DNA of 64,000 nucleotides, taken from Amoebophrya sp. A120 (lineage: Eukaryota > Protista > Dinoflagellata). How positions within the stretch are numbered: position 1 is the stretch's first letter; each line of letters starts with the position of its first letter. Positions 3,254 through 64,000 of this stretch are shown here, piece after piece. The notes under the pieces are model-generated. The model was not told where the DNA came from and did no database searches. It saw only the letters and a program-made list of their open reading frames with translations. The translations under genes were made by a program, and so were the position numbers. The stretch lies in contig CAJINV010000011.1 in assembly GCA_905178155.1 (NCBI GenBank), positions 643,982 to 707,981 on the forward strand, in the 5' to 3' direction.

Positions 3254-6200
3254 ATGAAGCCGGGAGGACTCTTTACCCGCGTTGCCAGCGTTCAGTTTTC
3301 CTGCTCCAAATCTACTTCATCGGCGCAGCACATATCTTCGGCGCCATTTCTTATGGAAGAGATTGGCAACAGCGTGAGCAGTCGGGGCGCCCGGGGCGCC
3401 CGCCCCCCGCCGACCTGGCGAAAGACCCGCAAGACCGACCGCTGTGCACCAGCTGCGGGGACGAGTGGTTCTCGTGCTGGATCAATAGTCCTCGAGCTGC
3501 CTAGGACCCCCGCAGTTCCGCATTTACTTCTCCGTGCCGGAAGCGCCGGACGTCGAGAGCGGGGTAACAGAAGCGGAAGGAGCACCTCCTTCGCACTCAT
3601 TTCGTCGACGCCGCTACAACCCGTAGGGCCCCATGCTGCACCGGGACCCCACTACGCTTTCCACACGAGTAGGACGACCCGCCGAACCTTTGCGTCCCGC
3701 AGCACAAAAAACCGGGTGAAAAATAAGATGAGTTTGCTGCGCAACCCGAACCTGTTCAGCAACGCACGGGAGGTGAAGATCGCCGTCGTGGGGCGGGCGA
3801 ATGTGGGTAAGTCAACGCTCTTCAACCGCTTGGTTTCCGGCTCGGCGAAGAGCGCCAAGGCCATCGTGCACAACCGCGCGGGCACCACCCGGGACCGGTT
3901 GGAGGGGACCGGCGTGTTCGGCTCTCTGATCGTGCACGCCGTGGACACGGGGGGCGTGGAAGATTTGCGCACCACCGTGAAGAGCAACATCCTCGCGCAG
4001 ATGCGGGCCCAGGCGCGGGCGGCCCTTCTGGAGGCGGAGGTGATCCTCTTCGTGGTGGATGCGAAAGCGGGGATCACGCCACTGGACGTGCAGGCAGCCC
4101 AGGACCTGATCCACAACGACGCGGAGCTGTTGCCGCTCGTGAAGAACTTGGACTCGCACTTGAAAAAGATGCAGCAAGGAACAGCTACAGGGAGGACCAC
4201 TACTGCTGCTCTGGGTGGCGAAGGCGATACAGCTGCTGCGGCAAGGGAGAATGCCTCCTGTGCAGCTCACGCTGCGTCTGCAGGCGACGAGGAGTGCATC
4301 TTCGGAAGCGGTATTGACGCCTCTACAACAGGAAGTAGGAGGAATAAACAGCGCAATGCTGCTACTGCAACTGCTGCTGCTGACAAAAATCTTCGAGGCA
4401 GAAGTGGTACTAAAAGCGCCGTCGACTCGAGACACGCCAGCGGTGAGAACCCGGCTTCCGGGAGCAGGCCACTGAAGAGTTTGATTCTGGTCGCCAACAA
4501 GGCAGACGGCGGCTATGTTGGGGACTGGGCTGCGGACTGCTACGACCTGAACCTGGGCGATCCGGTGGCGATTTCCGCCATGCACAACCAGGGGCTGGAC
4601 CACCTGTACGACCGAATCACGCTATATCCAGGAAAAAACACCCATCCCCATCCAATTTGTAATGCAAAACATGCATCAAGAGCAGCGTTTGTCATTTCAA
4701 AAATGGATGGGGATGGATATTTTTTCCTGGATACGCTAGAATTGGACTACCACCCCAAGGGGGATGATGAAGAGGACGAGGTACATGATTCAACTAGAAA
4801 ATATGTAAAATTCTATATGACTTTTGTGTAGTACAACAAGTACAATCGTGGTGTCCCTTGCTGTGCAGTGTGCTGCTGGTGCAGTCTGTCTGCATAGTAC
4901 CTTCGGAGCTTCTGCGAGTTTATTTCTGTCATCAACTTCATGTCCGTCAACACTTTCCGAAATAATATGTCAGGACGAGGACTTGCACGGGAGCTGCTCG
5001 CGCCGCGAAGTAGACGAGGACCGGGCACAACTTCTGAGTGGTTTTGAGGGCAGCAGCAGCAGCGCGTCGGGTTACCATCCGCAGGACGAGGTGCAGGAGA
5101 AGCGGAAATTCTACGAAGAGATCAGGGAGAACGAGGAAATTCTTATCCTGCGCAAAAGTATCGTACTCAGAGTAATTGCGGTCATGCATTAGAAACAAGG
5201 TCCGAGCACGGGGACAGAGTCCCCGTGCGGCGACCTTCCGGCATTTGTCTGGGACGAGTTCGGCGGCTGTGGTGGCACGGGGCAGGCAGGCCCCTGCAGC
5301 TCGGTGTCTCTGTGTGTCCTGCATCCATTCCCTGATCCGCGACAGACCTGCGGACGGAGCTCCTCTGACTGCTTGCCCACACTGGGTCCGTTAGCCTACC
5401 ACGAACAAAGAGAAAAGAAAAGAAGAAGCTGGCCCATAGCGCCGGCGATGTAGCTGGCCCCCAGGTCATGGCGCGGGGACCGAGTCCCCGCGCTGACCTA
5501 GGGCTTTTGCCCCTGGGCCGTGCGGCTAGTTCCCGGGAAGCGCCCACAGCTGGCCCCTAGGTCATCACGCGCGGACCGAGTCCCCACGCTCACCCAGGGC
5601 CTTTGCCCCCGGGCCATGCGGTTAGTTTCCGGGAAGCGCCCAAAGCAGCTGGCCCCTAGGTCATGACGCGGGGACCGAGTCCCCGCGCTGACCTAGGGCC
5701 TTTGCCCCTGGGCCGTGTGGTTAGTTTCCGCCCGGGAACGAAGCGCCCGAAGCTGGCCCCTAGGTCATGACGCGGGGACCGAGTCCCCGCGCTGACCTAG
5801 GGCTTTTGCCNNNNNNNNNNNNNNNNNNNNNNNNNNNNNNNNNNNNNNNNNNNNNNNNNNNNNNNNNNNNNNNNNNNNNNNNNNNNNNNNNNNNNNNNNN
5901 NNNNNNNNNNNNNNNNNNNNNNNNNNNNNNNNNNNNNNNNNNNNNNNNNNNNNNNNNNNNNNNNNNNNNNNNNNNNNNNNNNNNNNNNNNNNNNNNNNNN
6001 NNNNNNNNNNNNNNNNNNNNNNNNNNNNNNNNNNNNNNNNNNNNNNNNNNNNNNNNNNNNNNNNNNNNNNNNNNNNNNNNNNNNNNNNNNNNNNNNNNNN
6101 NNNNNNNNNNNNNNNNNNNNNNNNNNNNNNNNNNNNNNNNNNNNNNNNNNNNNNNNNNNNNNNNNNNNNNTGTCCGGGGTGTGTTCGGGGTGTGGCCTGC

Positions 6201-9200
6201 AAATTACAAATCACGATGCTACGGACCCACTTTGCATACCCCAGAACACACCCAAAAGCTTCAAAAGTTCTGGTTTGCTGCAGTTTAAATAGTAATGTCT
6301 TGACTAAGGCAAAACCGCATTACAAATTTCCTTTCTAATGCTGAGCAAATTTGTAACGCGATTTCTACTAGTACGATCACGATGCTTTTGCATTTCATAA
6401 TTCTGCGTCGCTGGCAACGCGAAGAGGAGGCCGAGGAACAACGAGGCGTGATTATCGACGAAGGTGGAGCCGATAAGTATTCGGATGTTGATTTTTTACC
6501 ACTCCCGGCGTTCGTCGAGGACGATCTTTTGCGCGAGGAGGGGGATGAAAATATAAACGACAAACACGTCCAGGATTTCCAACACGACGACGACTTCGAC
6601 CTAAGCCACCCAGCCGACGTATCAAATGCAGAAATGTCTGGGTCTGGAGCAAAGCAACTTGTCATGCTAAATCTGAATCATGTAAAAATCAGTGTTGCGT
6701 GATTACCAAAAGCTGTCCACTTTTGACCTAATCGAGAGGCAGTTTCTCATGCAGGACAGGCATGATAGAACTCTCACGGATGAATCTGTCATGCTATGTC
6801 CTACATACCAGACCTCATGGGCCATGGAAAGCCTGCGTAACAAGTCTGGCACTCTTTGCAGTTGATACGACGAGGACAACCGCGACCAGCGACCCCCGAT
6901 CATCGAGTTCAGAGAGGACGGGCACGAAGATTATCACACAGAAAAAAGCCTGCAGGGCATATTTGTAATGCAAAAATAAACACACAGAAAAAAAATGGGC
7001 GGCCTCATAGCATGCGACTTAGGATATGCAACGCAAATTTTTTTGTCAATTTATTTTTGCATTACAAATATGACCTGCCAGCTTTTTTCTGTGTGACAAA
7101 GATTTTGTATTGCCGAAGGAAGATGACTTAGAGGTACCAATCGAAGACGACGTAGAGCAGCAGTTCGAGCAGGAGGAAGAAGATAATATCGAGCCGGATC
7201 CGGACGAAGAGTCTTTCTTTGAAAGTCGACGTATTAAAACGACAAGGAGACCACAGGGTAAGAGCAATAAACTGGTAGGAGCCAAGAACATCGAAAGTAG
7301 CCCGCCGGACGAGGAAAACCGCGCTAACATCCTCACAAGCAGCAGCAGCAGCAGTAGCAGTCTTGGTGCTGCTAGTACCTCCAGCTCCACCTCACCAGGA
7401 GGAAAAAGCTCGTCTAGATCAACGAAGCCAGATGAAATTACCACTACGACCACTTCTTCCGTGGACGATCTGTCTGAGGAGGAGCTGTTGGAGCTTGATG
7501 CACAGTGGAAGTACCCCAACCTCACGCAGGAGCAGCGGAAATCCTTGCTGTACTTCGCCCGCCACCCGGGCTGCTCGTCCCTCTCGCTGGACCAGGATCC
7601 GGTGCTGAAGCACCTGGTATCCCAGTCCGTCTACGAGAAGGCCGCGCTGAGTGGCGGCGTGGACGCGCTGCGCAAACTCGTGCCCGGCGCGCGCGACGAG
7701 CAGCGCAAGTGGGACGCGGCGGCGCACCTGCGGGACCAGATCATGGGCCAGAAGCGGGAGGCGGACTTGGTCGAACGGGCGCTGAAAATCGCGGTCGTGG
7801 GAGTGCCCAACACCGGGAAGTCCAGTCTGATCAACGCGCTGCTGGGAAAACAGCGGGTGATCACCCACTTTGAAGCGGGGACCACGATCGATTCGGTCAC
7901 CTGCGAGTGGGTGTATCGGGGGCGAAAAATGAAATTGATCGACACCTGCGGTGTCTACCGGCGGGGCCGCGAGATCCAGGACCCGGAAACCGGGAAGTCC
8001 ATGATCGAACCCGGTATGGGAACGGTGAAAGCGATCCGGCGAGCGAACCTCGTGATTCTCTGCATCGATGCCACCATGTACAGCACCAATCCGCATTGCA
8101 CGCCGAGCTCCCGGTATCCGAGAAAAGAAAGACGATTGTACGGTGTAACGTTTTTTGGGGCAACAGCATGACAAATCTTCTGTCTAGCATGAGCGGATAG
8201 CACGTCGAACCTGTCATGCGCGGATAGCACTTCAAAACCACCACGCGCTTGAGTGGACGCTGTAATCCATGTCCAGCATGACAGACGCAATCATCTTGCG
8301 TCTTGCGCATCACAAAGTTACACTAACAATGTTTCTTTCCTGTATACCCGGGAAATCAAGATTGCGAAGTTGATCACGCGGACGCAGTATGCTTTGCAAA
8401 TATCGATCTCAGTCTGGATTTGTGATGCGAAAGTTGAAGGAGTGATGCATGGCTAGTAATGACGACTTTTTTTGTCATGCTGTGAAACTCAGTTTGTCAT
8501 GCAAAACACGCTAGAACAAACGAAACGACGCGCAATTATACCACCCGAAAAATTTGTGATGCGTGGATGCCGTACAGAGCAACGCTCTGTCATGCAAGAC
8601 TCAGCAACACAAAGCCGTTGCGTCTTTCCAGAGGACCGTAGACATATTTGCAGTGGATACGCAGGAGCGGCCGCTGATTGTCTGCGTGAACAAGTGGGAC
8701 CTGGTATCCTATGTAAAAACGTCCCCACCCCATAGTTGTCATGCAGATTTGCATCTACAGAAAATCTGTAATGCGCATTCCCATGAGAAAAATCAAATTT
8801 GAATTTCTAGTCGTGCTCTGAGATTTGTAATGCTGCAAACAGGATAAGAGGGCGTGTTTGTGATGCGGCTGTCCTTGCTAAACTGCACTACCCTACAGAC
8901 GGAAACGTGTCATGCATAACTCACAAAACTTGGAGACTTGTGTTGCACACTTACCAACTGGACTACGGGGTGGGGACGTTTTTACTCAGGATGCCTGGTA
9001 AAGGAGGGGCCGGAAAAGCGGAAATACCAGGAGGAGATCTTGCAACGGCTGAACACGGGGGTGCACGAGTGCCTGGGGGACGTGCCGACGGTGTTCTGCT
9101 CCGCGAAATTTCAGCAAAATCTCGCCGTCTTGATGGACAAAGCGCTCGTGTTGGAGAAGCGGTCCTCTGCGCGGATCGCCACCGCGAAATTAAATCAGTG

Positions 9201-15014: not shown

Positions 15015-16756
15015 ATGAGCAGTTCTTTCCTGAACTTGAGGCCTTGCACGACACTGCTGGCAACGTTCTTGCTTCTCCCGTTTTGTTTACATCTCCTCCC
15101 TGTCACCACCGCTGGTCGCCCATCTCGGGACGGGGATGCTGTGACTGCGCCGCCCGATAACGATTGGGAGTACTACTGGGGGCGAGGAGCGGGTCCAACT
15201 CTTCTGGAAAACAAGCGCGGGAATAACATGGTGGTTCCGCCCCCGCCCGGAGCTGTACCCGCCACGAAGCTGCAGGTTAAAAACGTCGGACATCAGGGAA
15301 CTACAAGCAAAGTCGTGCTGCAGAAGGATCTCTCACAAGAACTGCTGCCGCGGGGTACCGATTCTACCCCAAGTGAGGTTCTTGTGGGTGGTGGTGGTGC
15401 ACAGCCATCGCAGAATCCGGACGAAAACGACATGGCAGTGAAGGTGATGCGAAATTTCTGGAAAAACCAGCAGCCGGGCGGCCTGCGGGATGTCATGGGG
15501 CAGAATGGCATTGCGACAGCGAATCAACAAGAATCTGCGGAGGTCGCCGTGGAGCATCAAGAGGAGAAAGGGGAAACGGAAATATTGAATAAACCTTCTT
15601 CATCTACTAGTTCTAGCGAAGACGAATTTTTACCCGTAGTGCTCGGCACCCCCGCGCGGAGCCTGTCTTCCTTTGCGGGAACTACAGCCTCCATGGAGGA
15701 CGAGGGCCAGCAACCCGACCGGCTTTCCTACGAGCCGAGTAGGGGGCGACTCACGGCCTCGCAAAACGTATGGATTGCAAATATGTCTGGGTCTGGAAGA
15801 ATGCAACTTGTGATGCTATTTCTGGAAGCTACAAAAATCTGTATTGCATGAGCAGCAAGAGGCGTCCAGTTTTTGCTCCGCGGAGCGGGCACTTGTCATG
15901 CTGGATAGGCATCAATAGTCCCGCAAAAAATCTGTCATGCTAGGTCCTCCATTACAGGCATCGTAGCTCATGCGAAATATGCATGACAAACCTCGAAATC
16001 TTCCAGCCCCAGACATTTTTGCATTTGATAAAACGCCGCCCGGGACAAGACGGCAAAGGAGGTTTTGAACAACCTGTGGCAGCAGCCGGGCTTTCAGCGG
16101 GCTATCAAGTGTAAAAATGTCTGGATCTGGAAGATTCTGAGGCTTGTCATGCATGTTTTGAATTGGCCATTATATCTGTGATGCATGCCCTAGCATCACA
16201 GATTTTGCGCGGGCTTCGCGATGCCTATTCCGCATGACAAATGCCCCCTCCGCGTATCAAAAATTACACTCCCTTTGCTGCTCATGCAATACAGATTTTT
16301 TTGGAATCCAAATTTAGCATCACAAGTTGCATTCTTCCAGACCCAGACATTTTTACATTTGACACGGGCGCGGATGCAGCACATGATTGCCGAGGCGGTG
16401 AAAAAATCGAACGAACCCGGGGGGTTTCCTATCAAAATGAAAAATCCCCTCTCCCCATATCAAAAACGAAATTTGTGATGCTGTATTTGAGTACACAAAT
16501 CGACTTGTAATGCTAGAAGGCCAAGAGACGCAGCTGTGGCCTCGTTTGCAGGCAATTTGTCACGCTGTTTCCAACTTCCAGCTGCCCCCTGTCATGCTGA
16601 AGATGCACGGCTTTCCCACGCCAACCAGCACTACAGTCCGCATCTTTTCCCTTCTAGCATGACAAAGCTGATTTGTGACCACAAATCTGCATCACAAATT
16701 TCTAGTTTGAGTATGGGGTGGGGGGATTTTTCATTTTGATATTCCCGCTGCAGTGA
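15015..16756 (+). CDS. hypothetical secreted protein, 4 predicted exons
   Basis: N-terminal hydrophobic signal (TLLATFLLLPFCLHLLP). Exons 15015-15768, 16036-16102, 16370-16429 and 16747-16756 join in frame after removal of three TIR elements. The last junction has an imperfect DR, so the C-terminus is uncertain. Confidence 0.65.
15769..16030. mobile_element. introner-like element, family A (262 bp)
   Basis: tatggattgcaaatatgtctgggtctggaaga ... cttccagccccagacatttttgcatttgata; DR AAACG. Confidence 0.9.
16103..16364. mobile_element. introner-like element, family A (262 bp), inverted relative to 15769-16030
   Basis: tatcaagtgtaaaaatgtctggatctggaaga ... tcttccagacccagacatttttacatttgaca; DR CGGGC. 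Confidence 0.9.
16430..16741. mobile_element. introner-like element
   Basis: tatcaaaatgaaaaatcccctctccccata ... tatggggtggggggatttttcattttgata; DR TTTCC/TTCCC (1 mismatch). Confidence 0.85.
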
Positions 16757-32790: not shown

Positions 32791-32959
32791 TATGTAGTGC
32801 AAAAATCGTATCAAAACAAGACCTCTTGTATTATGTGCATGAGCAGCTGCAGCACGATATGTCTTTGTCATGCGATAGCGACTAAGGTCATGCGAAGAAG
32901 GATATGCAAGGTGCAATACAAAGGTCGTGACCATGATGACGCGATTTTTCCTTTCCATA
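32791..32959. mobile_element. degenerate introner-like element inside a possible GT-AG intron (32790-32963); host gene unclear
   Basis: tatgtagtgcaaaaatcg ... cgatttttcctttccata with internal tgtcatgc; context gggag|GTATGT...ccatacTAG|c. Confidence 0.5.
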
Positions 32960-49100: not shown

Positions 49101-52100
49101 TGAGGTCGCGGAAGCGGATAAAGACGTCGATCTTGATGTCGATGGTCCTGTACATCTTCACACTGGAGAAGATGAAGAACAACAAGATGAGGTGGAAAAC
49201 AATAACAGCTCCTCCGGCGCGGCGGTTCTTGCAGAGGGGAAAGAGATTGCGGTTGCAGTAGATGAACAGCAGGAACAGGCGTTCCACGACCTTCCCGAAT
49301 ACGATCCCGAGGTGGAGGAGGCTGGTCTGGAGGAGGGGATATTATACAACCACGCGGTGGACGAAGAAGCAGCGCAGGATCAAGCAGATGAACAAGGTGA
49401 AGAGCAGGAGCAATCTGAGGACAATGCTGAAGAACAAGCTGACGGTGACGACGCCGCAGAGTGTATCCTGAGTAAAAACGTCCCAACCCATAGTTGCCAT
49501 GCAGATTTGCGATTACAGGAAGATTTGTAATGCGCATCTCCATGAGAGGCGTTTCCATTCGCGTTTTGGAATTTGTAATGCTGTAAACGGGATGAGCAGA
49601 TGGATTTGTGATGCGGCTGCACATGCTAAACTGCACTACACTACGGACTGAAATTTGTCATGCGTTGCTCCCAAAGCTTCTGGGTTTGTGTTGCTAAGTT
49701 TCCAACTTGACTATGGGGTGGGGACGTTTTTACATATGATAGAGTGCGACTCGGAGATCGAGGACGAGCACACCAGGTTGGTCGGGAAAGTTTTGGATTT
49801 TGAGGAAGCTGCAGTATCAAATGCAAAAATGTCTGGGTCTGGGAAAATGCAACTTGTGATGCTGCATTTGGATGTCTAAAAAATTTGTGTTGCATGAGCA
49901 GCAAAAGGAATCGAATTTTTGCTAAGCGGAGAGGGTATTTGTCATGCGGAATAGGGATCAAGAGCCCCTTTTTGAAAAAATTGTGATGCTAGGGCATGCA
50001 TTTGCATCACAGACGTCATGGCCCATGCAGACCGTGCATGACAAGTCTCAGAATCTTCCAGACCCAGACATTTTTGCATTTGATATGCAGTAGACGTTGT
50101 CAATGTTCACACGAGTAAACAAGACCAGGCTGTTGTTGATCCTAAAATGAAGAAAGAAACAAAGAGTTCATCTTCCGGCGCTGGTGAAAAAGCTCTTTCT
50201 GGGGGCGACGTGGTGAAAAAAGCCGATGGCGATCTTGATGATTTGCTGATGGTGGACCAAAACGACGAAGCTGCTGTGCCGGATAGTACTTCTGTCGCTG
50301 CTGCAGCACTAGCTCCTGCTCCACCCGGTGGTTGTGCTGAAGAACCCGATGAGAATGGGGAAGCGGACGAACAGGCAGGAGCATTACAGGCAAAGGATGA
50401 GAAAGTAGTTGAGGATGCGGTTGAACAAGCAGACTGGGTGGATGATGAGGAGCAATACGAAGAAGAAGCCGGGGACGGCTGGTACTACGAAGACGAGGAA
50501 GAAGAAGAAGAGGAGGAGGAGGAGGAAGGTATCCGGAGCAGAAACTACTCCGTCCCCACGGCCCGCCCAGAGTTGTCTTGCAGATTTGCAATTTTTACAG
50601 GAAGGTTTGCAATGTGCATCCCCATGAAAGGCATTCTTAGTCATGTCTCGCCACTTGTCAGACTGTAAACAGGATAAGCTGATGCATTTTTGATCATGCG
50701 GCTGTCCTTTCTTTAACCTGCATTACGCTACGGATACAAACTTGTCTATGCGTGACCTTCAAAACTTCCGGATTTGTGTAGCGTACTAACTTTCCAACCT
50801 GACTTTGTTAAGGTGTCGTGGGCCCCGTTTTTACTCAGGACAGTCTACTACGAAGAAGAAGAGGAGGAGGAAGAATCTTCTTACGACCTTTCTTACCACA
50901 TCGACGACGACTTCTCCCCGCTGATGTTTGGCCACGAACAGAACCGCATTGCCATGGGGGTGCCGCCGCGGGAACATCATCCCAGCCTCGAGACGTTTGG
51001 CGCTTCTTGTCGTTACCCATTCGGCCGCATTTCCGACCGTCCGAGCACGTTGTTGCAAAGAGGAACAAATTTCATCCACAGTAGCTCCGGGCCGGTCACG
51101 GCGAGTGTGAAAGGCGAAGAACGGAAGAACAAGTATGGTATTCCGTTTGACGGCGAGGTAGAACATCCAGAACCTCCCCCTCATCGGGTGGACAAAAAGA
51201 AGAAGACCAAAAGTAGCGACTACAAACCCTGTCCACTGCTTGTTGGCTCGGAGCAGAAAAATGTCGAAAACCTGTTCAACGCCGCGGGGTCCAAGAAGGC
51301 GAGTCCGGTGAGCTCGCCGAAAGAAGTTAATACCGGTTTGACACCGAAAACCGGTCTGACGCCGAAGAGTGTGGGCGGTAAGATCGTTGTTGATCCGTCG
51401 GAGCAGGGGGAGAGTAGTACAGCTGTTGCAGGTGCTGGGTACAAACAGCCTCCGCCGGCACCAGGGGTTCTGGAAGCGGCCTCGAAACAAAATAGCAATT
51501 CGATCTTGGCCAAACCCAAGGGAGCGGCCATCGCGGGACCTCCACCTCCGCGCGAGGCTAGCAAATCGCAAAATAAAGTGGAAATCAACATTAAACGGGA
51601 GAACCAATTTGACCTTGACACTGCGAAAATCGCGGAACTGTCCGTCGATGCGTTGCTGGAATCCATTCCCGATAAACTACAGGAAGAACCGCTGGCCCGC
51701 GCGAAGCACGCCCAGTACTTGCTTGTGAAAAGCTTGCAATTGTTAGAGGAAATAACGGAGCAATCTTCGTACAGCGAATGCGAAAATTTACTCGAAGAGT
51801 CGGATAAACTGATGGATGTGGCGAAAAAAATGTGGGTGACTTCCATCACGAAGAACAACAAAGCCGAGGGTTCTTTGGTCGAGAATGAGAAGGACGACCC
51901 GGAACAACCCGCAGCTCCTTTTGCGAACCGCCAAGTCTGGGAAGACGCAATCCGGGAATTTCAAGTGGCGGAAGGAGAATTTCTAGTGAAAAATGCGGAA
52001 AAAATCGCGATTAGGGAGATGAAGGAGGAGCAGAAGAAGATACAAGAGAAGGAGTTGTTGAAAATTCAACACGACAACGACAAGAAGGAGGCGGAAAAGT

Positions 52101-55100
52101 TTAAGAAGCTGCAGGAAGATTTAGCCAACAGTGGGAAACAAGAACTGCTCCGGATCATCTTCGCTTCGCCCTTGAAACACGTTTATGTGCAGTCGGGCGC
52201 GTTGGAGTTGAAAAAGAACCTGGATCCAGAGACGTGGTGGGACGACAACGAAGAGATTTTGTTGAAGGTTCAAGGCGCTGCTGTGGACACTGACTGGGAG
52301 GAGGACGAGGAAGAAGCGCGTATTTTTGCCGCTGCTCGTCGGCAGAAGGGGAAAGATGCTGGTGCCGTTGTTGCCGCTGAAAAGGATTTTGCAGCTGCTC
52401 CCGATATTGACGTGGAGATGGGCGACGGGGGAGTAGGGATAGAGAACGCCAAGCAGGATGTTGAAGGGGGACAAGATGGTGCGCAAAATAGTAAATCCTC
52501 CAAGGTCGTACAAGCAGAACAGCAGCAGAAAGAACAAGCGACGAAGCAAGTGAATAAATCCCAGCAGTTGTTGAAGCCGAGCAAACGGAGCGCGGCTGAG
52601 GTGGGAGAAAATTGTACCCTCCCGCTGGATAGTACGATTTTACACGACGACTTATCCGAACCGGACCGGACGGAAGAGGATCTAGATTCTGACAGTTATG
52701 CTGAAGATCTAACCGGACGACGAAACGGCAAGAAATCTTCAGCGCTCTTTGCGGGCTTGACGCCGGTGTCAGACGGCTCTGAAGACGACACGACTTGTTC
52801 CAAGCCGCAGGACAATTCCTTCTCCACCAAGGCGCAAAGTGCGTCTTTTTCGCCCGTGGTAAAAAAGCGATCATCCCGTGGTGGCAGAAATTCAAATAAC
52901 AGACGTGGCAAGAGCTACAGAAATCTTTCCAGAGACCGACGACGCGAGAGTGACAACGCGGTGCGCCGAACGATTCAGCGAAACAACGCGCTGCACGAGA
53001 GGATGATCTCGAAAAACAGCAGCACGGTTTGCCCCGAAGAGGAGGAGTTCTTTCGTTATACTGCCAACGAAGATGAAGAAGCCACCCCAAAACTCACGAA
53101 GCGACAAAGACGGCAAAAGATCATCGACCGGCAGGTGGTGAAAACACTTCGGATTGACCTTGATTTTTCCCACCAGGGGGAAAATTTCTCGCGAAACTGC
53201 GACTGGCTGTTCAAGGGGGCGAACGGGCTTGCGAAGGCGGTTTCACGGTTGGGAGATCTTCTGCTGCAGAAGGAAAAGCGAGTGAAGGAGCGGGATGCGT
53301 ATTCGGGGTTGCCGCTGTGCCTGCACTTGAAGGATTGCTGCCTGACGCCCGGGAACTGCAGGGTGAGTAGAGTCTCAGTTTATCGATAGAGGAGTTCATC
53401 TTCGATATTTTCTGTTTCATCTTCCCTTGTGATAAGATAGTGATAATTGTTGCGTGTGGTTGTCTTCTTGTCCAAAAATGGAACATAGAATGTTGAACAA
53501 TCTCTATCACAGACCATCATCGACGCCCTGATGGAGTGCCAGGTGCAATGCCACTCGATTGACGTCAGTGAGAACGGTTTGGGCGACAAGGGTTTGGATT
53601 TGATTGTCCACTACGTCTATCAAATGCAAATACGTCTGGGTCTGGAGGAGTGCAATATTTGTGATGCAGGTTTTCCATGACCCATGAGGCCTGGCATGCA
53701 GCACCTAGCATGACAGATGCTGTGAGGTGTCTCTCATGCCTTTCCTGCATGAGAAACTTCCTGCCAACCTGGTCAAAAGCTGACATCTTCTGGTAATCAT
53801 GCAACACAAATTTTTGCATGATCCTGGCTCAGCATGACAAACTTGCATTCTTCCAGATGCAGACATATTTGCAATGCATTACGTCCAAGCGTCCCCCTAC
53901 CCCCCGGCGAAATTGGATTTGTCCGAGAATCGGGGGTCTCTAGCGACGCTCACCTACCTCCTCGCCGTGGTCGGGAAGCACCCGAAGTATCCGATCCCGG
54001 TTTGCCGACAAGCGCTCGCGACCTTCCCATCGCGGCGGCCGTTCTGGAAGCGGAGAGAGAAGGAACGCGAGCGGGAGCGGCAGTTGCGGTTTAGTCCCAA
54101 GCGCCGGATCAAGAACCGGATTCGGGAGTTTCTGAAAGCGAAAGGAAAAAATAGTAATTCCTCGCGGGCCTCGACGATGAACAAGATGGAACCACTTTTT
54201 TCGAAAAAAGGTTCATCTTTATCGGACACCAATTCCGAAGACGATGACCGGTCCGAGGTAGAGGAGGAAATGCAGATTACCTGGCAACCCCTCGACCTCC
54301 GGTTCAAGAACAACATGAACATCGACCGAACCGGGCTTCAGCGGGCGGAGATTGCGTGCGTGAAATCGGCGATTTCCGAGGAATTTGGCGTGGAGCTGGA
54401 CAAGATTGCGTTTGCGTGCAAAAAGGAGGTTTTGGAAGAGTTTTGGGGAGTGAGTGACGGTTTTTCATCGTCTTCTTCTTCTTCTTCTACTTCCTCCGGC
54501 AAGAACATCTTCACGACAGCTGCTGTCCACGAACTTGACCGCGACGTGGCGGAGCAAATGTTGAACACGTTGAACCCGATGGAAAAGCCGTTCCACAATT
54601 ACGTTTTGGATTTAACCAGCAACACCCCAGTCCCGCGTTTATCAGACACGGCGCAGACAACAGCCACGATCGGCGTGAAATTTTGGCAACAGAAGTTGCA
54701 ACAACTCCACTGCTCCCCGGCCTACCAGCTCGCGGAGTATCTGCGCGCGATCAATTTGTGTGTGTGCAATTGGATGCATTTAGACAGTCAGGAGAAATTG
54801 GTGAAGAAGAGCAAGATCGATTTGTACGAGGAAAAACGTAGTTGTACTAGCAAAAATGGTTTTATTTCCTCCACCTCCGCCTGTTTCTACAAGGAGCGGC
54901 AGCAGAAATCGACGGTCGGGATTTCGATGGACAACCCTTTTCTCTTCGACTCTACCGACTACCACATTTGGAACCACATGGTCGACGCCATGGAGCCGCA
55001 GTCCTACTACGACACCTTCATCCGCGGGCCCGACAAATTTCCCGAATCGTTTCAGGCCCGGGTGGCGGGCGTCAAGGGACTGATGGCTGGTGGTACCACC

Positions 55101-58100
55101 CCGGAGTTGCAGCACCAGCCGGGGGTCAATCTTCGTGGTGAGGAAAGTTTGGAAGAGGAAACGACAGCTAGCGAGGGTGAAGGAGATGGAGATGAAAATG
55201 CGGTAGTGAAAATCAAATCTGCCAATTGTAATTTTGCAATTTCGAAATCGAAGACAAAATCGGAAACCAATGAACCTTTCGACCCTGTCAGCAAGGCAAT
55301 TGAAGTGGTGAAAGCAGTGGAGGCCATGGTGGAAACCGCGAGTTTGACGAAGACTGCGATCAAGCAGGAAGACGCTGTGGCGGTTCTGGGGAAATTGTTT
55401 TCATTCGAAGAGGCACTCTACGCCGAAAAGTGGTCCACAGGAGCAGGAGGAAAACAACAGCATAATGCCACGACTTCTACTACCGCCGTAGTGCCAAAAC
55501 AACAAACGGGGAGTACAACGTCGCAACAACAGCATCTTTGGTGGGACCCGCAGCGGCTGCTGATTGAGTCGAGCGTCTGCGCTCCTCTAGCTACCACTTT
55601 CGACGCAGTGCCGAATCTGTTGTGTGACAGTTTGAAGGACGAAAGAACGGAGCTTGGTTACTACACGACGACGGATGGTGTGATTGTGCACGACGAATTG
55701 GCAGTGAAGTGCGAGGCGAAGCAGTTCTGCTTTCCGTCAGTGCGACGGACGGACAGATCCGGAAAAGAACTCGCCGTCTCCGACGACCGAGTTGTTGAAA
55801 ATCAGAGTTGTACCTCTCTGTCCACGAACTTGATCCCGCTAGATTTAGACTTCGAATCCAAAATCCTCCAACAAAAGCAGATTCGGCTGCGTCCGAAGTC
55901 GAACGACCCGTTCCGCGACCACTTCAAGAAACTGCTGGAAAACACGACGCCTAACATGGAAACGCTGCGCCGGTTTTTCCGCGCGGTCGACATAGCGGAC
56001 GATCGGGTGAAGGTGCCGGAGGAGCGGAGGGTGGGGTGTTTGGACGACCGGACGATGACCGAGGTGTTAGAGTCGCAACTGTACCAGCAGGCGCCTCAGC
56101 ACTGGCTGCAGATGGCGCACGTGTTTTACTGGACCGTGGAGAAGTGCATCTCCCCGATCCTCCCGCCCACCCACAAGGACATCTTCTGGCTGTTCGCGCA
56201 CAAGTACCTGATCAAAGATTTCCAGTCCTGGATGCCGGCGCTGATCGTGGACCCGGCCTTATTGCCCGCAGACTTCTGGCTTTTCGACACGAACGACGAC
56301 GTGGAGCGCCACGCGGAATTCGTTCTAGAGAACTTGCGGGAAGGGTGTTCATCTGGGCGGAATAGTAGTACAACCGGACTGCAATCCTTCTTCAACGGAC
56401 TCTGTGGGGGAGAAGAAATCAGTGCTTTTGAGGAAGAAGATGCTGAGTTGTCTAGTACTTCGGGACTACAGGAAATGGATCTGGATGTCGAAGATCAAGA
56501 AGACGGCTACACGAACTTCCTCGCTACGAAACTGCATTTCAGCGATTTCTTACCGCCGAGTGGCAAGAGCACGACGACGACGACCCAAGAAGAAGACAGC
56601 AGTCACGACCTTGCACCAAAAGTTGAAACAGAAAATTCTGAAGCTATTGACGGTTTCTACGATGTTACCAGTAGCCTGGCGAAGAAGGAACTCGGGTGGC
56701 ATCAAATCAACTACTCCGGGACAGCCTCCTCATCCGAAAGCGTCCGCATCGAGCACCCGAGACTGAAGCGTCGGTGTGGAGCCGTGAAAGACACAAAATA
56801 CGCGAACAACAACACGGAACCCGGGGTGCTGCTGCAAGCGTCCAAAGAGGAACAGAACTCTCGTAGAGAGAAAACGGAATTCCACCTTCAGTCCTTCAAC
56901 CAGTTTTTACTCAACATTTTCGAGCCCGTCTACCAGCAGAAGTGGTGTCGGAAACAGAAAAAGGGGGGCCTTCAGCGCTGGACCACGCACCAAGGGTTGG
57001 ACTTGATGCTCAATCACAAGGCGGAGAAATTCGTCGATACGCACGACCCCAATCGGATTTTGGACGAGAAAGCGTACGAAGGGCATTTTGTACAGGATGC
57101 CGGGTCGGGGAAGGCGAGGAATTTGCTGTTTCCCGAAGAGTTTGCAGCTAAAAGAGCAGCCGTTGCTAGCAGTCGCGATGTTGCAGCTGGTGCACAACAG
57201 CAGGGAATGTTAAATGTCAAAAAAATGAAAGCCAAACAGACTACGAAGCCATTGCCTCCGATACCGGAATCCGTTAAGATTCTGTCCAAGTCCGACATCA
57301 TTCCGGCTATCCTGGTCGAGCGGGAAGCTTTTCTCATCGAGAAACGGTTGGAATCCGTTGCGAAGCTGTGGAGCGAGAAGCATGACGTGCGGTTGGAACT
57401 GTGGAAGCTGCTACAAGCGGGGCGGAGTTTGTGGAGGGAAAAAAAGCAGGAAATGAAGCTCTTCACGCAGTTCGACAATTGCGCAAGCGAGCAGGAGAAA
57501 GAAAAGGATCAAAAGGAAGCAAAGTGGAAGGAAGGCGTGAAAACAAGCAGTTCTAACCACAACCGCGCTACCACAAAAAATGATAAAGTCACTGGAGGTG
57601 CTGGTGCTGCGGTCGCGTCGACAGCGAAAGGCAACGGACAGAGGCAAAAAAGATCCTCTCCTTACAAGAGCAAAATGAACCCGCCGAAAATTCTTGGAGT
57701 GCAGAAAAACGGGATGAAAGAGAAGATGACGGGGAACAACATAACCACTTCAAGCCACGGCAAGAATCAAGCGTGGAAAAAGGTTTTCGAGCAGGAACAA
57801 ACGGAGTGCGAGCGACAAATCAATCTGCTGTGCAAAAAGTTTCTCGAGCATTGGTTCTTTGGAGAAAAATTTCTGAAGGAGGTTGGGAATAGATTCGGGA
57901 AGAAGAGGCCAAAGGCGGTCAACAATATCAAGGCATTTGCGTCCATTGTTGCAGGCGTTGTTGAAAACAAGCTTCCTGCCCTGCCAGAGGAGGAAGCCGA
58001 CGAGGTGGAGCAGCAGGTATGGTTTTTGTGAGACTGGGTTTGTGTTTTTTGTTTTTGTCTAAATTCTAGAACGTCGACTTACTTCTTGTTCTTTGTTCTT

Positions 58101-61100
58101 GCTTGATCTTTTTCCTTTTCACATGTAGACGCATAGTTTTGGTATTGGTACAAATAATCCACATGAAAATTTTTGCATATTACTCATGTGACCAGAAAAC
58201 CTTTCCACAGCACTCCGGCATCGACTACGACGAGATCCAGACGAGTTTTGACCATTTAAAAGCGGAGCTATTCGCCGTCTCGAGACTCGCGGAAGTTGAG
58301 ACAAATGGATTTCCAAGTGCGGCAAGCAGTGCGGAAAACAAAGATGACACGGAAATAAAGCTTCTCGCCAACGCCGCGGAGGTTTGCCTTATGGAATTAA
58401 CAACCGTGAAAACCGTACCAGAGCAGCTGTTTGACTGGTTGCAGTGGAAGAACAAAAGAGCTAGAGAGGCGGACGCGGAGGTGGAAAAACAGGCCGCCTC
58501 TCCTAGCGCTGATGTTCTACTTCCGGGGGATAATTTAGTAGGAAAAGGAGATGCAGATCATGATATTGACGAAGCTGCAGAACATGTGAACGCGAAGAAA
58601 CGCAAAGTCGATATCGTCAGCAATAAACCCGAAGATGCCCAACATGCTATTTCATCTTCTTCTTCCTCTGCTTCCCCCTGCACTTCTCTTGGCGGCAACG
58701 AGGTTGCGTTTGGCTATGAGTCTCTCATCAGTTTCCTGCTGCTCACAGTCTGGGATCAGAAAAAGAGTACATCAGCAAATGGTTACGATACGAGTGCATC
58801 TTCACTTTATTTTACGAACTGCAAGAAGAGAACAACCGGGTCTTGTTCTTTATCCTTGAAGCAAAAACTAGCGACCAAAATCCTCTCGTTGTTGGAGCGC
58901 GTGGAGCACGATCTTCAGGTTAACACGCTCAGCAGCGGGGAAGATGCCCTTAACGAAGAGGAAGTATTGACCGCCGTCACCGGCTTTGTCACCGACGCCA
59001 CCGCCGATTTCCACGAAATGCGGCAAAAGACCCATTGCGTACATCATCTGCGTGCATTGCAGAACGACGACCTTGAAAAGCTGTACGGCATCGATCCGGA
59101 AAACATTTCGGACCACGCGGCATTACAACCGGAGATAGGCGATCGACTGGGCGTTTACACGCAGATGATTTCGCGCTTGCTAAACGCGATGTTCTTCTAC
59201 GACATGCTCTCGCAGAAAAACAAACGGGCGTTAGAAGAACAATTGGAAAAAAACAACAAGAACTTATTTCGGGAAGGTCTTGTAGTTTTTCCTATCAGCG
59301 ATTTCGAGCGCACGCTGGGACGAAAGGGGCCTGGAGATAGTAAAAATTGCGAGCACGACACAGAAAAATTTTCCGAAGAAGACGCGATAGCGTACATCAA
59401 GTTGGAGATGGAAGCGCAGCAGATAGTTCATCATCATCTTCGTGGAAAAGAAGATTCTGTTGGCGAGAAAGAAGAGCATGACTCTGCTTCTGCTTCTGCG
59501 CGTGCTCTCGTCGGCGATGACGTCGAACTCACCGCAGCTTTGACCGCCCAAATCCTGAAGTTCTTCCCCGACGCGGATTTGGAAGTGAAAGACCGCCGGT
59601 TCGCTTTCGCGAAATCCTTCCACGACGTCCTGGTATCGACCATCGACCGCCCGACGGGGCAGCACGCGTGGTTGTGCCGGAGTGAAAACAAGAAACCTAC
59701 CACCGTGTTGCGGGAAATTATTCGCATTCGGAAATTTTTAGCGTCCGAGACTTTGAAGAAACTCGACAGTTTTCTACCAACTGTTGCGTTCGAATACAAC
59801 AAGGTCCGGAAGGACGAGGAGCTGCTGTTCGACTACGAGGCGGTCCGGCTGCAGAAGAAATTATTGCAGATTAAAAAAGCGGTCGCGGCCGCTGGAGTGT
59901 CCGATTTACACCGCACCCACTACGGGAGTTACGAGTTCGCGTGGAAGTTTCTCTTAGCTCCTCACCTGATCAGCGATGCGAAACGGTGGGAGGAAATTCA
60001 TAGTGTCGGGAAACAGCTGCTGAATGGATTGTCGGTTTTACAGTGCGACCCGGATTACTGCCTGTGGTTCCAACCTCTGGTGTACGAACTAGCGGAGATC
60101 ATGCAGGCGGCGGAGAAAAAGAATAAGAAACGCGGGAAGACTTATTTCCAGTGCGATGAAAATTTGCAGTTTCACGTCGAGGGCGATGAAGAAAATGAAA
60201 ACCTGTTGGGCGAAAATAAGGAGGAGAACTACACGATGAAACCGCAAGCAGGACGTCGACCCGTAACACGAACTCTTACTCCATTCGAGAAGTTTCTTGC
60301 CATGGAAAAAATCGAAATCGGAGAAGGCATCCATTGTAGTACGACCAGCGGCGAAGGATCCAGTGTAATATCCTCGGGAACCACAGCCTTTGCGGTCTTG
60401 CGGCGAGAGGAAGATGGGAATGGTGGTGAGAACAAGCTCAAGCGAGCGTCAAAGAAAAATTCTTCTTCTTGCACTACCACCACGACCGGTAGAAGAAGTT
60501 CGTCAAATTATTTCGAATACCGCGCGTTCACACCCTCCACTTTCGAAGGTTTCTATTCGGAGGAAACAAGCTCCTTTCGCACCACGCCACTTTTGACCGA
60601 CCACGGGAAGACGGTCGCGTTCACAACGCAGAAGGTTTTTGACACGTTTTCGGAGACGTACGGGATTTCCAAATGGGGGTTGCAGAAGTTTTCCGGATTA
60701 TTGAATTACGAACCGCGAGCGGTGGTTCTACTCTCCTACTTGAAGTATCAAATGCAAAAATGTCTGGGCCTGGAAACTTGTGATGCTGGGTGGCGTATCA
60801 TGAGGAGGCCGCAAGTGCTGGCTCAGCATGACAAGTTTTTGAGCTTCTACGTGTTGCCTATTCTGCATGACAAACTGCGTTTCTGCATGACAGAAAAATG
60901 GCGCTCTTGGGTGACGTGCATGACAGATTTGAGAGTCATGCCAGACAAGCATTACAACCACGCACTTTTCCAGACGCAGACACTTTTACATTTGATACGA
61001 AGTGGCAGCTCGGGTTTGAGGAGAAGGAAATTTCCGAGATGGTCTCGCAATTCTCGGAATATGCAAAGAAAAAAGTGTTACAGTTACACATTGTGATGCA

Positions 61101-64000
61101 AAACATGCAAGACAAACGACCTCTGTCATGCGCCAAATGCTTACGAGTCTAGTTTCGTGTGTGTTTTGCCTTATGAACTCTGCATACACAAGTTTTCTTC
61201 GTCATGCGAGGCAAATTTGTAATGCTGAACTCACTACAAATGTGTAACTGTAACACTTTCTCTCTTGGATACGGAACTCCTGCAGCTCAGCCGGCTGGCG
61301 TTTGTGCAGAATGTTGGGGAGGTTGGTCGATGTGCAGCAGGAGATGATCGACCTGAACGTCCTGCGCGCGACGAGCCGGAGGGTACTAAAAATGTTGCGT
61401 CATCTTCGACCTCGGAGGCCGAAGGGGGGAATAGTAGCAGCACGAGCTGCGACAAGAAAATACTGAATCAGGTCCAAAACAAGAACAGCTCCGCGGGCAG
61501 CAGCAACTCTTTGTCCAAAAAATCAGAAGAAGATCTTCATTCCGATTGGTACGGGAAGAGTAGTGCGGCCATTCTGTTCCCTGAATTCAAGGTGCAAATG
61601 TTGAGAAACAAGATTGCGCTGGGGGAGGACTGTTTGATGGACTTGGATCTAGGGCCGGAGCAGGAGCTGATTTCCTTTCTCACCGTGTTTGACTTTCTGA
61701 ATGCCATTGCGGAGCAGGTTTCTAAGGATCTACTGCAGACAGAAGTACTAGAAGTAGACCATGAAGACCACAGGAAAGAAGAAGAAGAGCAGGACAAGCA
61801 GCAGGGCGCATCTCCTGCAACTCGTCGTCGTCGTGGTTGTTCCGAAGGAGCTGTCAAATTCAATGCAAGTACAACATCCCAACACCAGCAGTGGCTTTCC
61901 TTCTCCAAGCATTTCACCAAGACGCTTTTTGCCTACGACTTTTTGGGTGCCGAAGTGCTCCCCTATTGCAGTGAAAAGTGCCCCCCACCCCTGAAAGTGC
62001 AAAAGTTGTGATGCGAAGTTTCCAAATGAAAGCTTTCTGTCATGCATGGAAGGAGTATGGATCTTTCTGATGCAGAGTCTAGACGTATATCGCATCGCTT
62101 GCATGACAAGCGCCGCTCTTTCTGGGCCCTTTTGCAATACAAATTTTTGCTATTCACGATTGAAAACCTGTGATGCTGATAGATGCAAGAGCGCGAATGT
62201 TTCATTTGGAAAGGTTTGCAATACAAATGCTTTCAAGTTCGGGGGTGGGGGGCATTTTTCATTGTAATATCCCCAGCGAGATGTTTTCCGAGAGCCGGTT
62301 GGGGAAGTCACCGTTTTGCGTATCGTAAAGAAAAATGCCCCCACCCCCGAACTTGAAAGCATTTGTATTGCAAACCTTTCCAAATGAAACATTCGCCCTC
62401 TTGCATGTATCAGCATCACAGATTTCCGATCGTGAATAGGAAAAATTTGTATTGCAAAAGATCGCAGCAAGAGCGGTGCTTGTCATGCAAGCAATGCGAA
62501 ACACCACTAGAATCTGCATCAGAAAGATTCATATTCCTTTCATGCATGACAAAAGGTTTTCATTTGGAAACTTCGCATGACAAATTTTTGCAACTTTGGG
62601 GGTGGGGGCTTTTCACTGTAATATTGCGTGCGGAAGTTTTTCCGAAACCGGTTCGAGGAGTTGGTCGGGGACATTAAAAGCACGGGCCGCGGGAGTTGTA
62701 GGAACGATTTTTCTCCTACCACCAATGGTTGTAGTGGTACAACTAGAATTACCTCCGCTCTCTCCTTCTTGAAGCGCAGTATCTACGAGGCGCGGTTTGG
62801 GAAACTGCAAAGAACTTCTGGGATGAAGAATTCGCTGGATAGAGTTAAGGAATTGCAGGAAAGGAGCAAATTCTTATCCCCACTGAGCGTCGTATTTCAA
62901 CATGTCCCGGACGCCGACCGAAATGTCGCAGAAATAGAGGCGTATTGGAAAAAGTTGCACGGGCAGAAACAACGACAGCGAGCCTTGCAGCGGCTAAGAC
63001 GACTGTACGCGGCCGGGACGCTGAAAGTGAGAAAGAAAAAAGCTCGAAGTGCTAGTACTCTTGGGAAGATGAAACAAGTGAAGCTGCGAGGTGAAAAGCA
63101 CGAAATTGCCTCAGAAAAAGATGGCGAAGATGCGGGAGATAGAAACAGAAAAAGCAGTACTTGCTCTACCGCCGTCGTTGTCCCCGGCACGAACGTTGTG
63201 TTTGCGTATTTGCTCCTGGGACGAGGTCTACACCTGGAGGAAGATCCTCAACAGCGGAACGTCGTAGCAACAGGCAAAACCTCGAAAGTCGAAGCTGCCA
63301 CAGAGATAAAAGCATCGAAAGCTGCGGCGATAGATGCAAAAAGCAACTCCTCCTCGGAAGACGCTGCGGAAGTGCAAAAAGGTAGGACCGAAATGAGCAA
63401 GAATGCTACTTCTACCGGTGCCACAAAGACCATAAAGAACTCGACTCTGCTTCGCAACTCCGGTTGGTCCACGCTTCTGGACTACCACAGTTTTATTTTA
63501 CCCAGTGTGGAGGATGCACAGGTACAGGAGTCCCTCCAAGAAAGCAACTCGAAGAACGTTGCCGCGGCGTGGATCAAGAAGAACGCGCGGTCCTCATCAA
63601 TCCAGAAAGAAAACCAAGTCTTGGCCGAGCGAGCGTTTGCGAACCTTGTGGACCTTTCCTGGAACGAGAAGCAGCAAGCAGTGTTGGCAGGCTTGGCGAA
63701 GGTGCTCAGCGGGTATTTGCGGCCAATGCGGGAGATTTTTGGCAACTTCGCGGGAAGACGTAGACCAGGTTCCACCGCTAGTAGGTGTGCAATGGACCAC
63801 CACACCACTCATTCATCATCCGCGACAGAGCCGAATACAGAGGAAAATACGCCGTTCTCGTCGCGATTTCAGTTTGAAGATCCGGAAGTGAGCAAACAGT
63901 ACTGGTCGAAACGTTACCGGGACAACGCAAACGACCTCTTCGTCGTGACAGAAAATCAACGAAGCGGCACAACATCAGGAGCTGCGACTTCTGCTTGTTC
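40156..64000 (+). CDS. giant multi-exon protein (about 6,700 codons or more): acidic repetitive N-terminal part, short RI-like LRR segment; start unresolved, 3' end beyond window
   Basis: ORFs 40159, 40495, 40911, 41419, 47326, 48739, 50147, 50774, 53874, 58103, 61265 and an open frame 62629-64000 join after removing 12 TIR elements and GT-AG introns (40765-40865 tentative, 53363-53512, 58017-58195). LRR-like segment: LHLKDCCLTPGNCRTIIDALMECQVQCHSIDVSENGLGDKGLDLIVHYVQASPYPPAKLDLSEN. Confidence 0.65.
40330..40562. mobile_element. introner-like element, family A, right terminus truncated
   Basis: tatggattgtaaaaacgtctgggtctgga ... ccagacccagacacttt; interior closely matches 60746-60997; followed by an extended exon duplication. 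Confidence 0.8.
41085..41344. mobile_element. introner-like element, family A
   Basis: tatgaaatgtaaaaatgtctgggtctggaaga ... tcttccagacccagacatttttgcatttgata; DR GGGCG; removal gives WNRA-SPRT. Confidence 0.9.
41550..42115 (+). repeat. coding imperfect tandem repeats (NHSEQDHSE/QSEHSVHD)
   Basis: Recurring attctgagcaagatcattcggaa and gagcactctgtgcacgac units. Confidence 0.8.
44185..45580 (+). repeat. coding repeats: 3x (DDESSSSxEEEEDEESPSVQQ..VNNLAQHQGQH), several PAVNN units, 3x (QHQGA..NEGSSSSWETDSSSEE)
   Basis: Visible at both DNA and protein level in ORF 41419-47157. Confidence 0.8.
47086..47365. mobile_element. introner-like element, family A (diverged)
   Basis: tatcgaaggcagata ... tatttgcactcgata; DR AGGAC/AGGAT; removal gives SEED-VVVHS. 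Confidence 0.8.
47371..47613 (+). repeat. 27-bp coding minisatellite, 9x VxVHSEDED
   Basis: gtcctggttcactcggaggacgaggac-type units in tandem. Confidence 0.9.
48437..48698. mobile_element. introner-like element, family A (262 bp)
   Basis: tatcaactgcaaatatgtctgggtctggaa ... ttccagacccagagacatttgcatgtgatg; DR GCATC; removal gives LRH-LDDDD. Confidence 0.9.
49464..49741. mobile_element. introner-like element, family B
   Basis: tatcctgagtaaaaacgtcccaacccatag ... ctatggggtggggacgtttttacatatgata; DR GAGTG. Confidence 0.9.
49815..50085. mobile_element. introner-like element, family A
   Basis: tatcaaatgcaaaaatgtctgggtctgg ... ccagacccagacatttttgcatttgata (28-bp perfect TIR); DR TGCAG. Confidence 0.9.
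50530..50842. mobile_element. family B element (diverged) that forms a canonical GT-AG intron 50529-50843
   Basis: gaag|GTATCCGGAGCAGAAAC...GTTTTTACTCAGGACAG|tctac gives EEE-VYYEEE; no 5-bp DR (GAAGG vs GTCTA). Confidence 0.8.
53363..53512 (+). other. canonical GT-AG intron
   Basis: agg|GTGAGT...cacAG|acc joins LRR-like sequence in frame. Confidence 0.8.
53618..53880. mobile_element. introner-like element, family A
   Basis: tatcaaatgcaaatacgtctgggtctgga ... ttccagatgcagacatatttgcaatgcatt; DR ACGTC; removal gives VHYV-QASP. Confidence 0.9.
58017..58195 (+). other. canonical GT-AG intron
   Basis: cag|GTATGG...accAG|aaa, T-rich interior; joins EVEQQ to KTFPQ. Confidence 0.7.
60746..60997. mobile_element. 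introner-like element, family A
   Basis: tatcaaatgcaaaaatgtctgggcctgga ... tccagacgcagacacttttacatttgata; DR TGAAG/CGAAG; removal gives YLK-WQLG. Confidence 0.9.
61060..61271. mobile_element. introner-like element
   Basis: tatgcaaagaaaaaagtgttacagttacacatt ... aatgtgtaactgtaacactttctctcttggata; DR CGGAA; removal gives FSE-LLQ. Confidence 0.9.
61964..62269. mobile_element. introner-like element, family D
   Basis: tattgcagtgaaaagtgccccccacccc ... ggggtggggggcatttttcattgtaata; DR TCCCC; removal gives VLP-SEMF. Confidence 0.9.
62321..62623. mobile_element. introner-like element, family D, inverted relative to 61964-62269
   Basis: tatcgtaaagaaaaatgcccccaccccc ... gggggtgggggcttttcactgtaata; DR TTGCG; removal gives SPFC-VRKFF. 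Confidence 0.9.

Follow-up and report, generated by a model that had tools for sequence, protein, structure and literature searches.

In Amoebophrya sp. A120, 65% of introns have been described as non-canonical, and the nine commonest non-canonical sites listed all have N-T donors (Farhat et al. 2021, PMC7789003). The covered parts of the same paper describe introner elements with a TAT-N7-AAA end and direct repeats (DRs) of 3-5 nt, with U1 and snRNP27 undetected and no transposase. In a further study, 58 introner families were distinguished in A120 (Gozashti et al. 2025, PMC12130899); in the supplement rows covered (22 of 58), most were classed as terminal inverted repeat (TIR) DNA elements of unknown superfamily, and one TIR family with Copia/Gypsy-like open reading frames was noted. 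Here, a window of 64,000 nucleotides of A120 DNA (contig CAJINV010000011.1, positions 643,982 to 707,981) was analysed, together with related loci. Because the organism is A120, the TIR elements in this window are the published elements themselves and not an analogue: organism, TAT-N7-AAA inverted repeat, DR, families, non-GT-AG borders, RNA-supported removal and the lack of an assigned transposase all agree, and no difference in kind was found. The class is already known, and the preliminary description of the window, which pointed to introner elements already described in Amoebophrya with machinery and transposase unsettled, is borne out by the covered parts of PMC7789003. What is new is an insertion motif lying on one side of the element at a fixed distance, together with a specific splicing model. 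The reading slightly favored here is that TIR elements with this one-sided motif are spread by a putative cut-and-paste transposase and removed by a putative relaxed spliceosome. The excision and mobilization of most A120 introns has been a question since 2021, and it is now turned into sharp tests: the model names the 5' cut and the branch nucleotide, and any candidate transposase must reproduce a 5-bp target-site duplication (TSD) and, on a single side, T-N-G spanning -13 to -11.

A scan requiring a perfect 5-bp DR and at least 17/25 TIR matches, in which a TAT start was not demanded, gave 19 matches in the window, 17 of which were elements of the preliminary description; five shuffles gave 0, 0, 1, 0 and 1. 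A set of 26 elements was curated by gapped alignment and inspection of the sequence. All 26 started with TAT, and the 3' ends were ATA (20), ACA (3), ATG (2) and ATT (1). The TAT-N7-AAA end was well preserved, with A at TIR positions 11-13 in 25, 22 and 25 of the 26 elements. The DR matched at 4-5 of 5 positions in 23/26 elements, being perfect in 20 and having one mismatch in 3 (16430, 47086 and 60746); in the remaining three (31300, 32791 and 50530), no more than 2/5 positions matched. Thus, the earlier claim of at least 26 elements starting with TAT, 20 of them with a perfect DR, was confirmed by a scan that did not use TAT and by curation; its three one-mismatch cases also stood, but its one extended duplication and two elements without a repeat became three with at most 2/5 matches. 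Miniature inverted-repeat transposable element (MITE) traits were present, i.e., TIRs, a TSD of fixed length, short size and lack of coding sequence. The TIR pattern was absent from the viral contigs searched, and an Rfam search of the window gave no family.

For all 20 perfect-DR elements, GT-AG borders were impossible at any exact placement of the cut, as had been stated previously. Non-GT-AG borders held for the class but not for every member, since the borders of element 32791 are exactly those of a GT-AG intron (G+TAT...ATA+CTAG), and elements 26289, 41085, 49464 and 50530 have an in-frame GT-AG option with one codon left over. If the intron is taken to start 1 nt before the element and to end 4 nt into the second repeat copy (the 1+4 register), a GT donor was found in 15/26 elements and exact GT-AG in 1/26.

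A wider set of elements was obtained from 128 loci (541,514 bases) collected by a pattern scan, the 80 listed of which came from one assembly. Because one exon was 99% identical to an A120 protein, these loci were taken to represent a genome near-identical to A120, and near-full-length relatives of 22/26 window elements were found in them. DNA orthologous to the window, which would allow filled and empty sites to be compared, was absent from these loci. The detector used for the loci ignored the terminal 3 nt and the DR in scoring; it gave 496 candidates, compared with 22 false ones in 247,545 shuffled bases, and recovered 16/26 window elements exactly. An exact DR of length 5 was found in 284/496 candidates, and lengths 3, 4, 6, 7 and 8 were found in 12, 1, 0, 1 and 1. 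At least 4/5 DR positions matched in 347 elements, for 281 of which the orientation of the coding strand could be set and for 66 of which it could not; two models of orientation agreed in 82/82 cases, with within-locus concordance in 265/268.

No base preference was found within the 5-bp duplication of the locus elements. Outside of it, T was enriched 2.27-fold at 13 bp and G 1.72-fold at 11 bp from the edge. Among 264 non-redundant perfect-DR sites, T-N-G was present on one side in 159, on both sides in 7 and on neither side in 98, so that two-sidedness was strongly disfavored (odds ratio 0.11, p = 3e-10), whereas random coding positions used as a control showed no anticorrelation for T (odds ratio 1.04). 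The spacing was fixed: offset -13 accounted for 207/646 half-sites, whereas the counts for the nine remaining offsets ranged from 16 to 60. The side of the motif depended neither on how the element was oriented (47/47 for the largest family) nor on the direction of the gene (139 vs 146 of 278); therefore, T-N-G is a DNA-level signal. The window, which played no part in finding the motif, replicated it: 20/26 elements had T on either side, where 40% would be expected (p = 2e-4), and 10/26 had T-N-G, where 12% would be expected (p = 5e-4). The one-sided insertion signature at 11-13 bp is thus well supported. It also accounts for the intron phase bias, as the shares predicted from the motif were 0.21/0.33/0.46 vs 0.25/0.30/0.45 observed, and selection on splicing need not be invoked. 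The motif would be recognized by a DNA-binding domain or a partner, and the staggered cut of 5 nt would thereby be placed approximately one helical turn away. Weaker positions (A-15, T-12, T-10 and G-17) loosely resembled the TTGT core of a repeat occurring about three times per element, and it is a matter of speculation that one protein may read both the flank motif and the TTGT repeat.

The first reading of the target as a palindromic motif was overturned by the one-sided counts. Contingency counts were used for the motif because codon periodicity acted as a confounder in an expectation-maximization fit (gain of 306 vs 141-179 in controls). Target motifs of TIR and long terminal repeat elements (PMC3276498) and the non-palindromic motifs of retroviruses (PMC10547254) are similar in that the aggregate looks palindromic while single sites match one half only, as has been modelled for retroviruses. 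However, retroviral submotifs adjoin the integration site, whereas the A120 signal lies at 11-13 bp, and the TSD and its neighbors are nearly featureless. Insertion by Tn7 and Tf1 is directed by factors, and the A120 spacing is more like theirs. Ginger2/Tdd elements share TIRs, a 5-bp TSD (TDD-4/5) and a terminus, TGT, from which TAT is one change away, but their TGTNR termini and RTATAY target preference were not found in A120 elements (PMC2836005).

Long copies of the elements were inspected for a transposase. None was found in seven long copies from the loci (two of which are one site in overlapping loci) or in one from the window, 541 kb and the window being a small part of the genome; likewise, no Gypsy-integrase-like coding copy was identified among them. 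The 2,459-bp copy at L038:476-2934 lies inside a host gene, has a perfect 5-bp DR and contains a 415-codon open frame. This frame is not called a transposase here: it had no Pfam match, its sole sequence match was the gene call of its own contig, and its Atlas matches were nameless and of low recognition. The copy may be one with cargo or a full-length parent. The long window element at 5144..6399 (perfect DR) contains a GC-rich 96-bp tandem repeat that runs into a 360-N gap; its interior was unmatched in the loci, and no long frame was present outside the gap. At L010:5001-5800, an unpartnered left TIR is followed by GC-rich short repeats up to the contig end, possibly representing another long copy.

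The lack of a transposase in these copies, and in the covered parts of PMC7789003, would also fit a spread by reverse splicing of RNA without any DNA transposase, as would the concentration of elements in coding frames (281/347 oriented). Such a route is nevertheless highly improbable because the elements are randomly oriented relative to genes, the duplication is fixed at 5 bp and the motif occurs equally on both DNA strands, all of which indicates a double-stranded DNA target. In particular, members of each of the eight largest locus families pointed both with and against their host genes, with counts such as 45/29, 23/14 and 9/9, and both orientations of one family were found within the window, in the pairs 15769/16103 and 61964/62321.

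The consequences of element removal were most clearly seen in der, encoding the EngA GTPase (3728..9558; the elements of the window and the five host genes with given borders are on the + strand). Its last exon matched protein P0001, which bears the name Amoebophrya sp. A120, at 100% identity, and A25 at 75%. The gene contains the long element described above and six others, at 4625..4733, 6620..6867, 6932..7098 (3' ACA), 8115..8346, 8388..8659 and 8705..8993 (3' ATG), all with a perfect DR; those at 8115 and 8388 lie in GD2, and that at 8705 adjoins NKWD, a piece of an RNA-type contig beginning at 8994. When the seven elements (with 5 nt apiece) and one GT-AG intron (4781-4973) were taken out, the result was a Der protein of 1,009 aa that aligned with its orthologues over the three GD2 junctions. 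The previous claim that cutting an element with one DR copy restores the frame, including the GD2 and NKWD context of Der, was thereby upheld; for the label "L/F-transferase", used there for another restored core, Pfam gave no confirmation. The annotated protein P0001 lacks six of the seven elements and keeps 4625. The 114-nt unit of this element is in frame and without a stop, and 4625-4733 corresponds to 38 extra residues in the A120 annotation that are lacking in A25 and other orthologues; it could be either an unannotated intron or a case of genuine retention. In a gene of locus L033, the annotated A120 protein lacks all of the elements in 17 TIR-type gaps.

Removal was also observed in one RNA-type contig. 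A contig of run X1, which was taken to be RNA by guess only and covered 24/30 bins vs 30/30 for run X5, joined 23503 to 23802, skipping 298 nt (293+5), i.e., the element at 23510..23802 (perfect DR) and 5 nt, with no added letters. DNA contigs of X5 contained this element and ran unspliced over exon-element borders, i.e., the sites were filled in DNA. No element junction was found in the raw-read runs X8 and X9, which covered only 4/30 bins. It might be supposed that the elements are kept in mature RNA or lost from DNA, and that the junctions reflect template switching by reverse transcriptase, ribosome hopping or somatic excision of DNA. A hairpin with a direct repeat is a classic template-switch substrate, and the annotation does retain element 4625; the junction evidence, both here and in the covered parts of PMC7789003, is based on cDNA. 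This explanation is extremely improbable in view of the filled sites in DNA contigs, of the fact that only 3/77 units of length 3n read through, and of a gene with 11 elements, which demands exact removal. In addition, RNA-type runs contained 0.42-0.48 of the words of the der region vs 0.78-0.85 for two other runs, the former being approximately the exon share.

How the removal is carried out was approached through the element ends. Among the unanchored ends of locus elements, departures from TAT at positions 1, 2 and 3 were counted in 0, 1 and 8 of 228 5' ends and in 5, 4 and 1 of 250 3' ends. This asymmetry was significant (interaction p = 0.001; p = 7e-5 including the window, where curation based on TAT may inflate the 5' side). 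By these departure counts, three bases are best kept in the sense direction: the U and A of the 5' end, plus the A at the third position from the 3' end. If the cut is placed 1 nt before TAT, these bases become U at +2, A at +3 and A at -7. The +2 U, the +3 A and the branch A are the positions needed by the spliceosome. Therefore, the asymmetric constraint in the sense direction suggests residual donor-like and branch-like signals. GT-AG introns gave a similar picture, with GTAT donors in 9/13 (6/10 predicted in the window and 3/3 in the L033 gene), and in element 32791, GT-AG falls exactly in the 1+4 register.

According to the splicing model, which we consider about evenly balanced between right and wrong, the first base of the intron would lie 1 nt ahead of the TIR, at N-UAU, i.e., the GUAU donor of A120 with position +1 relaxed; the branch would form at the A in third place from the TIR's 3' end (-7); and the 3' cut would fall 4 nt inside the second copy of the repeat, at a constant distance and with no requirement for AG. 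Orientation would be irrelevant because the TIR carries both signals on either strand, and removal would be seamless because of the direct repeat.

The preliminary description had attributed removal to structure or repeats rather than to splice signals. This was only partly supported: a terminal hairpin was present in predicted folds (z = -7.0 and -4.2). However, the sense stem showed no excess of G-U over A-C pairs (43 vs 52 derived and 151 vs 194 overall), and the constrained terminal bases were more conserved than their pairing partners. Because the partners were unequally constrained and G-U was not in excess, the stem does not appear to act alone; no signature of RNA pairing was found, and the ends were asymmetrically constrained. 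The same findings count against a non-spliceosomal system, such as an endonuclease-ligase or a Euglena-like one, that would cut the TIR hairpin at its base, with a constant stagger, and then ligate the exons. For such a cut speak the strong terminal stems, function in both orientations, the absence of a dinucleotide preference in the repeat and the conservation of TIR positions 11-13 at both ends, as well as the failure to detect U1 in A120 (PMC7789003, covered parts). On the other hand, the same source reports almost all proteins of the spliceosome in A120, along with U2, U4, U5 and U6. The nonconventional introns of euglenids are likewise abundant, closed by a hairpin and non-GT-AG (PMC12501133), and a euglenid-type stem joining the intron ends was present in the predicted folds here, although nothing indicated that RNA pairing was under selection. 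The euglenid signature N3CDG...CHG N5-6|R was, however, absent in 281 A120-type elements, with no purine preference at the exon start. Cutting at the hairpin base is rather unlikely on balance.

Besides the lack of a transposase in the long copies, several points weigh against the spliceosomal reading. The end asymmetry amounts to only 19 departures in the loci, and variation at 3' positions 1-2 was 2.1% and 1.1%, below the interior value of 6.4%. A at -7 was present in only 7/13 GT-AG introns. Neither G at +1 (62/229) nor AG together with GT (8/78 vs 19/218) was preferred in the element set. G at DR position 5 in the window (11/20) had been considered as a sign of donor selection and was rejected, as it was gone in the loci in that same count of 62/229. 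The upper bound of the register, a cut after DR position 4, comes from one GT-AG case and analogy. The sole junction read directly, 23503/23802, comes from a run guessed to be RNA and is register-blind; therefore, RNA does not settle the register. The N-T donors listed for A120 in Table S4 may stem from donor scoring by the aligner (HISAT2).

A further such point is that single DR mismatches were synonymous in 30/51 cases vs 33-43% expected with one free copy (p = 0.0002-0.016), an excess not predicted by a fixed register. It would be expected if the cut floated within the duplicated 5 bp with the ends coupled, either copy appearing in mRNA and the repeat guiding the joining; the legend of Fig. 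3 in PMC7789003 also calls the splice positions variable relative to the hairpin. Nevertheless, synonymous differences could also arise by conversion from empty alleles, and the frames of the three window elements with 1-2/5 DR matches (31300, 32791 and 50530) were locally open. Moreover, at each of three tested mismatches, the annotated protein P0016 showed a single base: in two cases, both at DR position 5, the downstream base was kept, and in one case, at position 1, the upstream base. From these bases, which are second-hand as they derive from the annotation of a close relative, a cut 1-4 nt before TAT can be deduced at these sites. A floating cut is therefore improbable. An attempt to polarize DR mismatches by mutation bias was abandoned because the spectrum was near-symmetric. 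In the mismatched repeats of the loci, an upstream A/T opposite a downstream G/C was observed 26 times and the reverse 9 times.

Reduced splice signals of the type assumed in the spliceosomal reading have parallels. The introns of Giardia and Trichomonas have a V-TAT donor with a relaxed first base (VTATGTT in Giardia) and a branch fused to the 3' site at an invariant short distance; by our reading of the motif, the branch A lies at approximately -8, as compared with -7 proposed for A120 (PMC6679479). Unlike the A120 elements, these introns are few, are not derived from transposons, and keep AG and a full branch consensus. In Fritillaria borealis, MITE-derived introns with TIRs and TSDs and non-GT-AG borders are removed by an adapted U2 spliceosome (PMC11282704; 10.1101/2025.08.15.670264). 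Their prevalent ends are AG-AC/AG-AT and U1 is retained, whereas the dinucleotides in A120 come from the unconstrained repeat. Loss of SNRNP27K accompanies +4 U (PMC10581693). The more specific combination of a U1-less spliceosome that disregards both terminal dinucleotides, reads only N-UA and a branch A within the symmetric transposon ends and measures 7 nt to the 3' site, paired with a novel eukaryotic transposase that inserts one helical turn away from one-sided T-N-G, is proposed tentatively and has somewhat less than an even chance of being correct. If true, such a transposon could remove itself cleanly by splicing from nearly every coding site, whichever way it is oriented. Loss of U1 has occurred in Cyanidioschyzon. 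The covered parts of PMC7789003 contain no one-sided motif, splicing in both orientations, end asymmetry or branch hypothesis, although Figures S19-S25 may bear on these; in its main text the word "lariat" is absent, and of the 13 passages that mention branch, orientation, target or phase, the 12 covered deal with other matters. Searches of the literature gave no paper in which these elements are assigned a target motif or a branch point, and subscription papers and supplements could contain either.

Other host genes of the window also opened on removal of their elements. The gene at 15015..16760 encodes 296 aa once three elements are removed: those at 15769..16030 and 16103..16364 (3' ACA), which are of one family in opposite orientations and have perfect DRs, and that at 16430..16741, whose DR mismatch is at position 3; an RNA-type contig lies over its first exon. 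The gene at 21452..24176, with the element at 23510, encodes 808 aa, for which Pfam gave no family. Removal of elements 26084..26232 and 26289..26567 (both with a perfect DR) yielded 530 aa for the gene at 24800..26830. A zinc-finger-like gene at 30724 was only partly restored, as other introns there remained unplaced. A decayed TIR remnant (31023..31150), one of two further marginal copies in the window, lies within the predicted GT-AG intron 31022-31153. Element 31300..31460 has 2/5 DR matches, the frame being kept on removal of the element and 5 nt; element 32791..32959, also with 2/5 matches, coincides with the GT-AG intron 32790-32963.

The largest host gene (40643..64000) had at least 6,589 codons free of stops after removal of 11 elements and three predicted GT-AG introns. 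Perfect DRs flank the elements at 41085..41344, 48437..48698 (3' ATG), 49464..49741, 49815..50085 (perfect 28-bp TIR), 53618..53880 (3' ATT), 61060..61271, 61964..62269 and 62321..62623, the last two being of one family in opposite orientations. Mismatches are at DR position 5 in 47086..47365 and at position 1 in 60746..60997, and in 50530..50842 (1/5 DR matches) the frame is kept by the 1+4 cut as well as by a GT-AG 1+1 cut. The product is acidic and repetitive. Pfam gave no family for three exon pieces of this gene or for nine locus exons picked for register tests, and a search with one of its exons against proteins of up to 2000 aa found no homologue, which is weak evidence. Upstream of this gene lies the other marginal copy (40330 to about 40566), which lies outside coding DNA, has a decayed 3' end and lacks a DR; this fits exact ends being kept in exons only.

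Several further repeats and genes were observed. An intergenic stretch of approximately 55 bp was seen by eye to occur twice in near-identical form, at about 37270-37325 and 38505-38560. A dispersed repeat without TAT ends is present at 14770-14970, with a high summed depth in DNA contigs and loose ends of short read matches at 14917-14952. A gene of the Gar1/Naf1 family is located at 13301-14555, and poly(A)-like loose ends were found in run X9 at 14531 and 14555.

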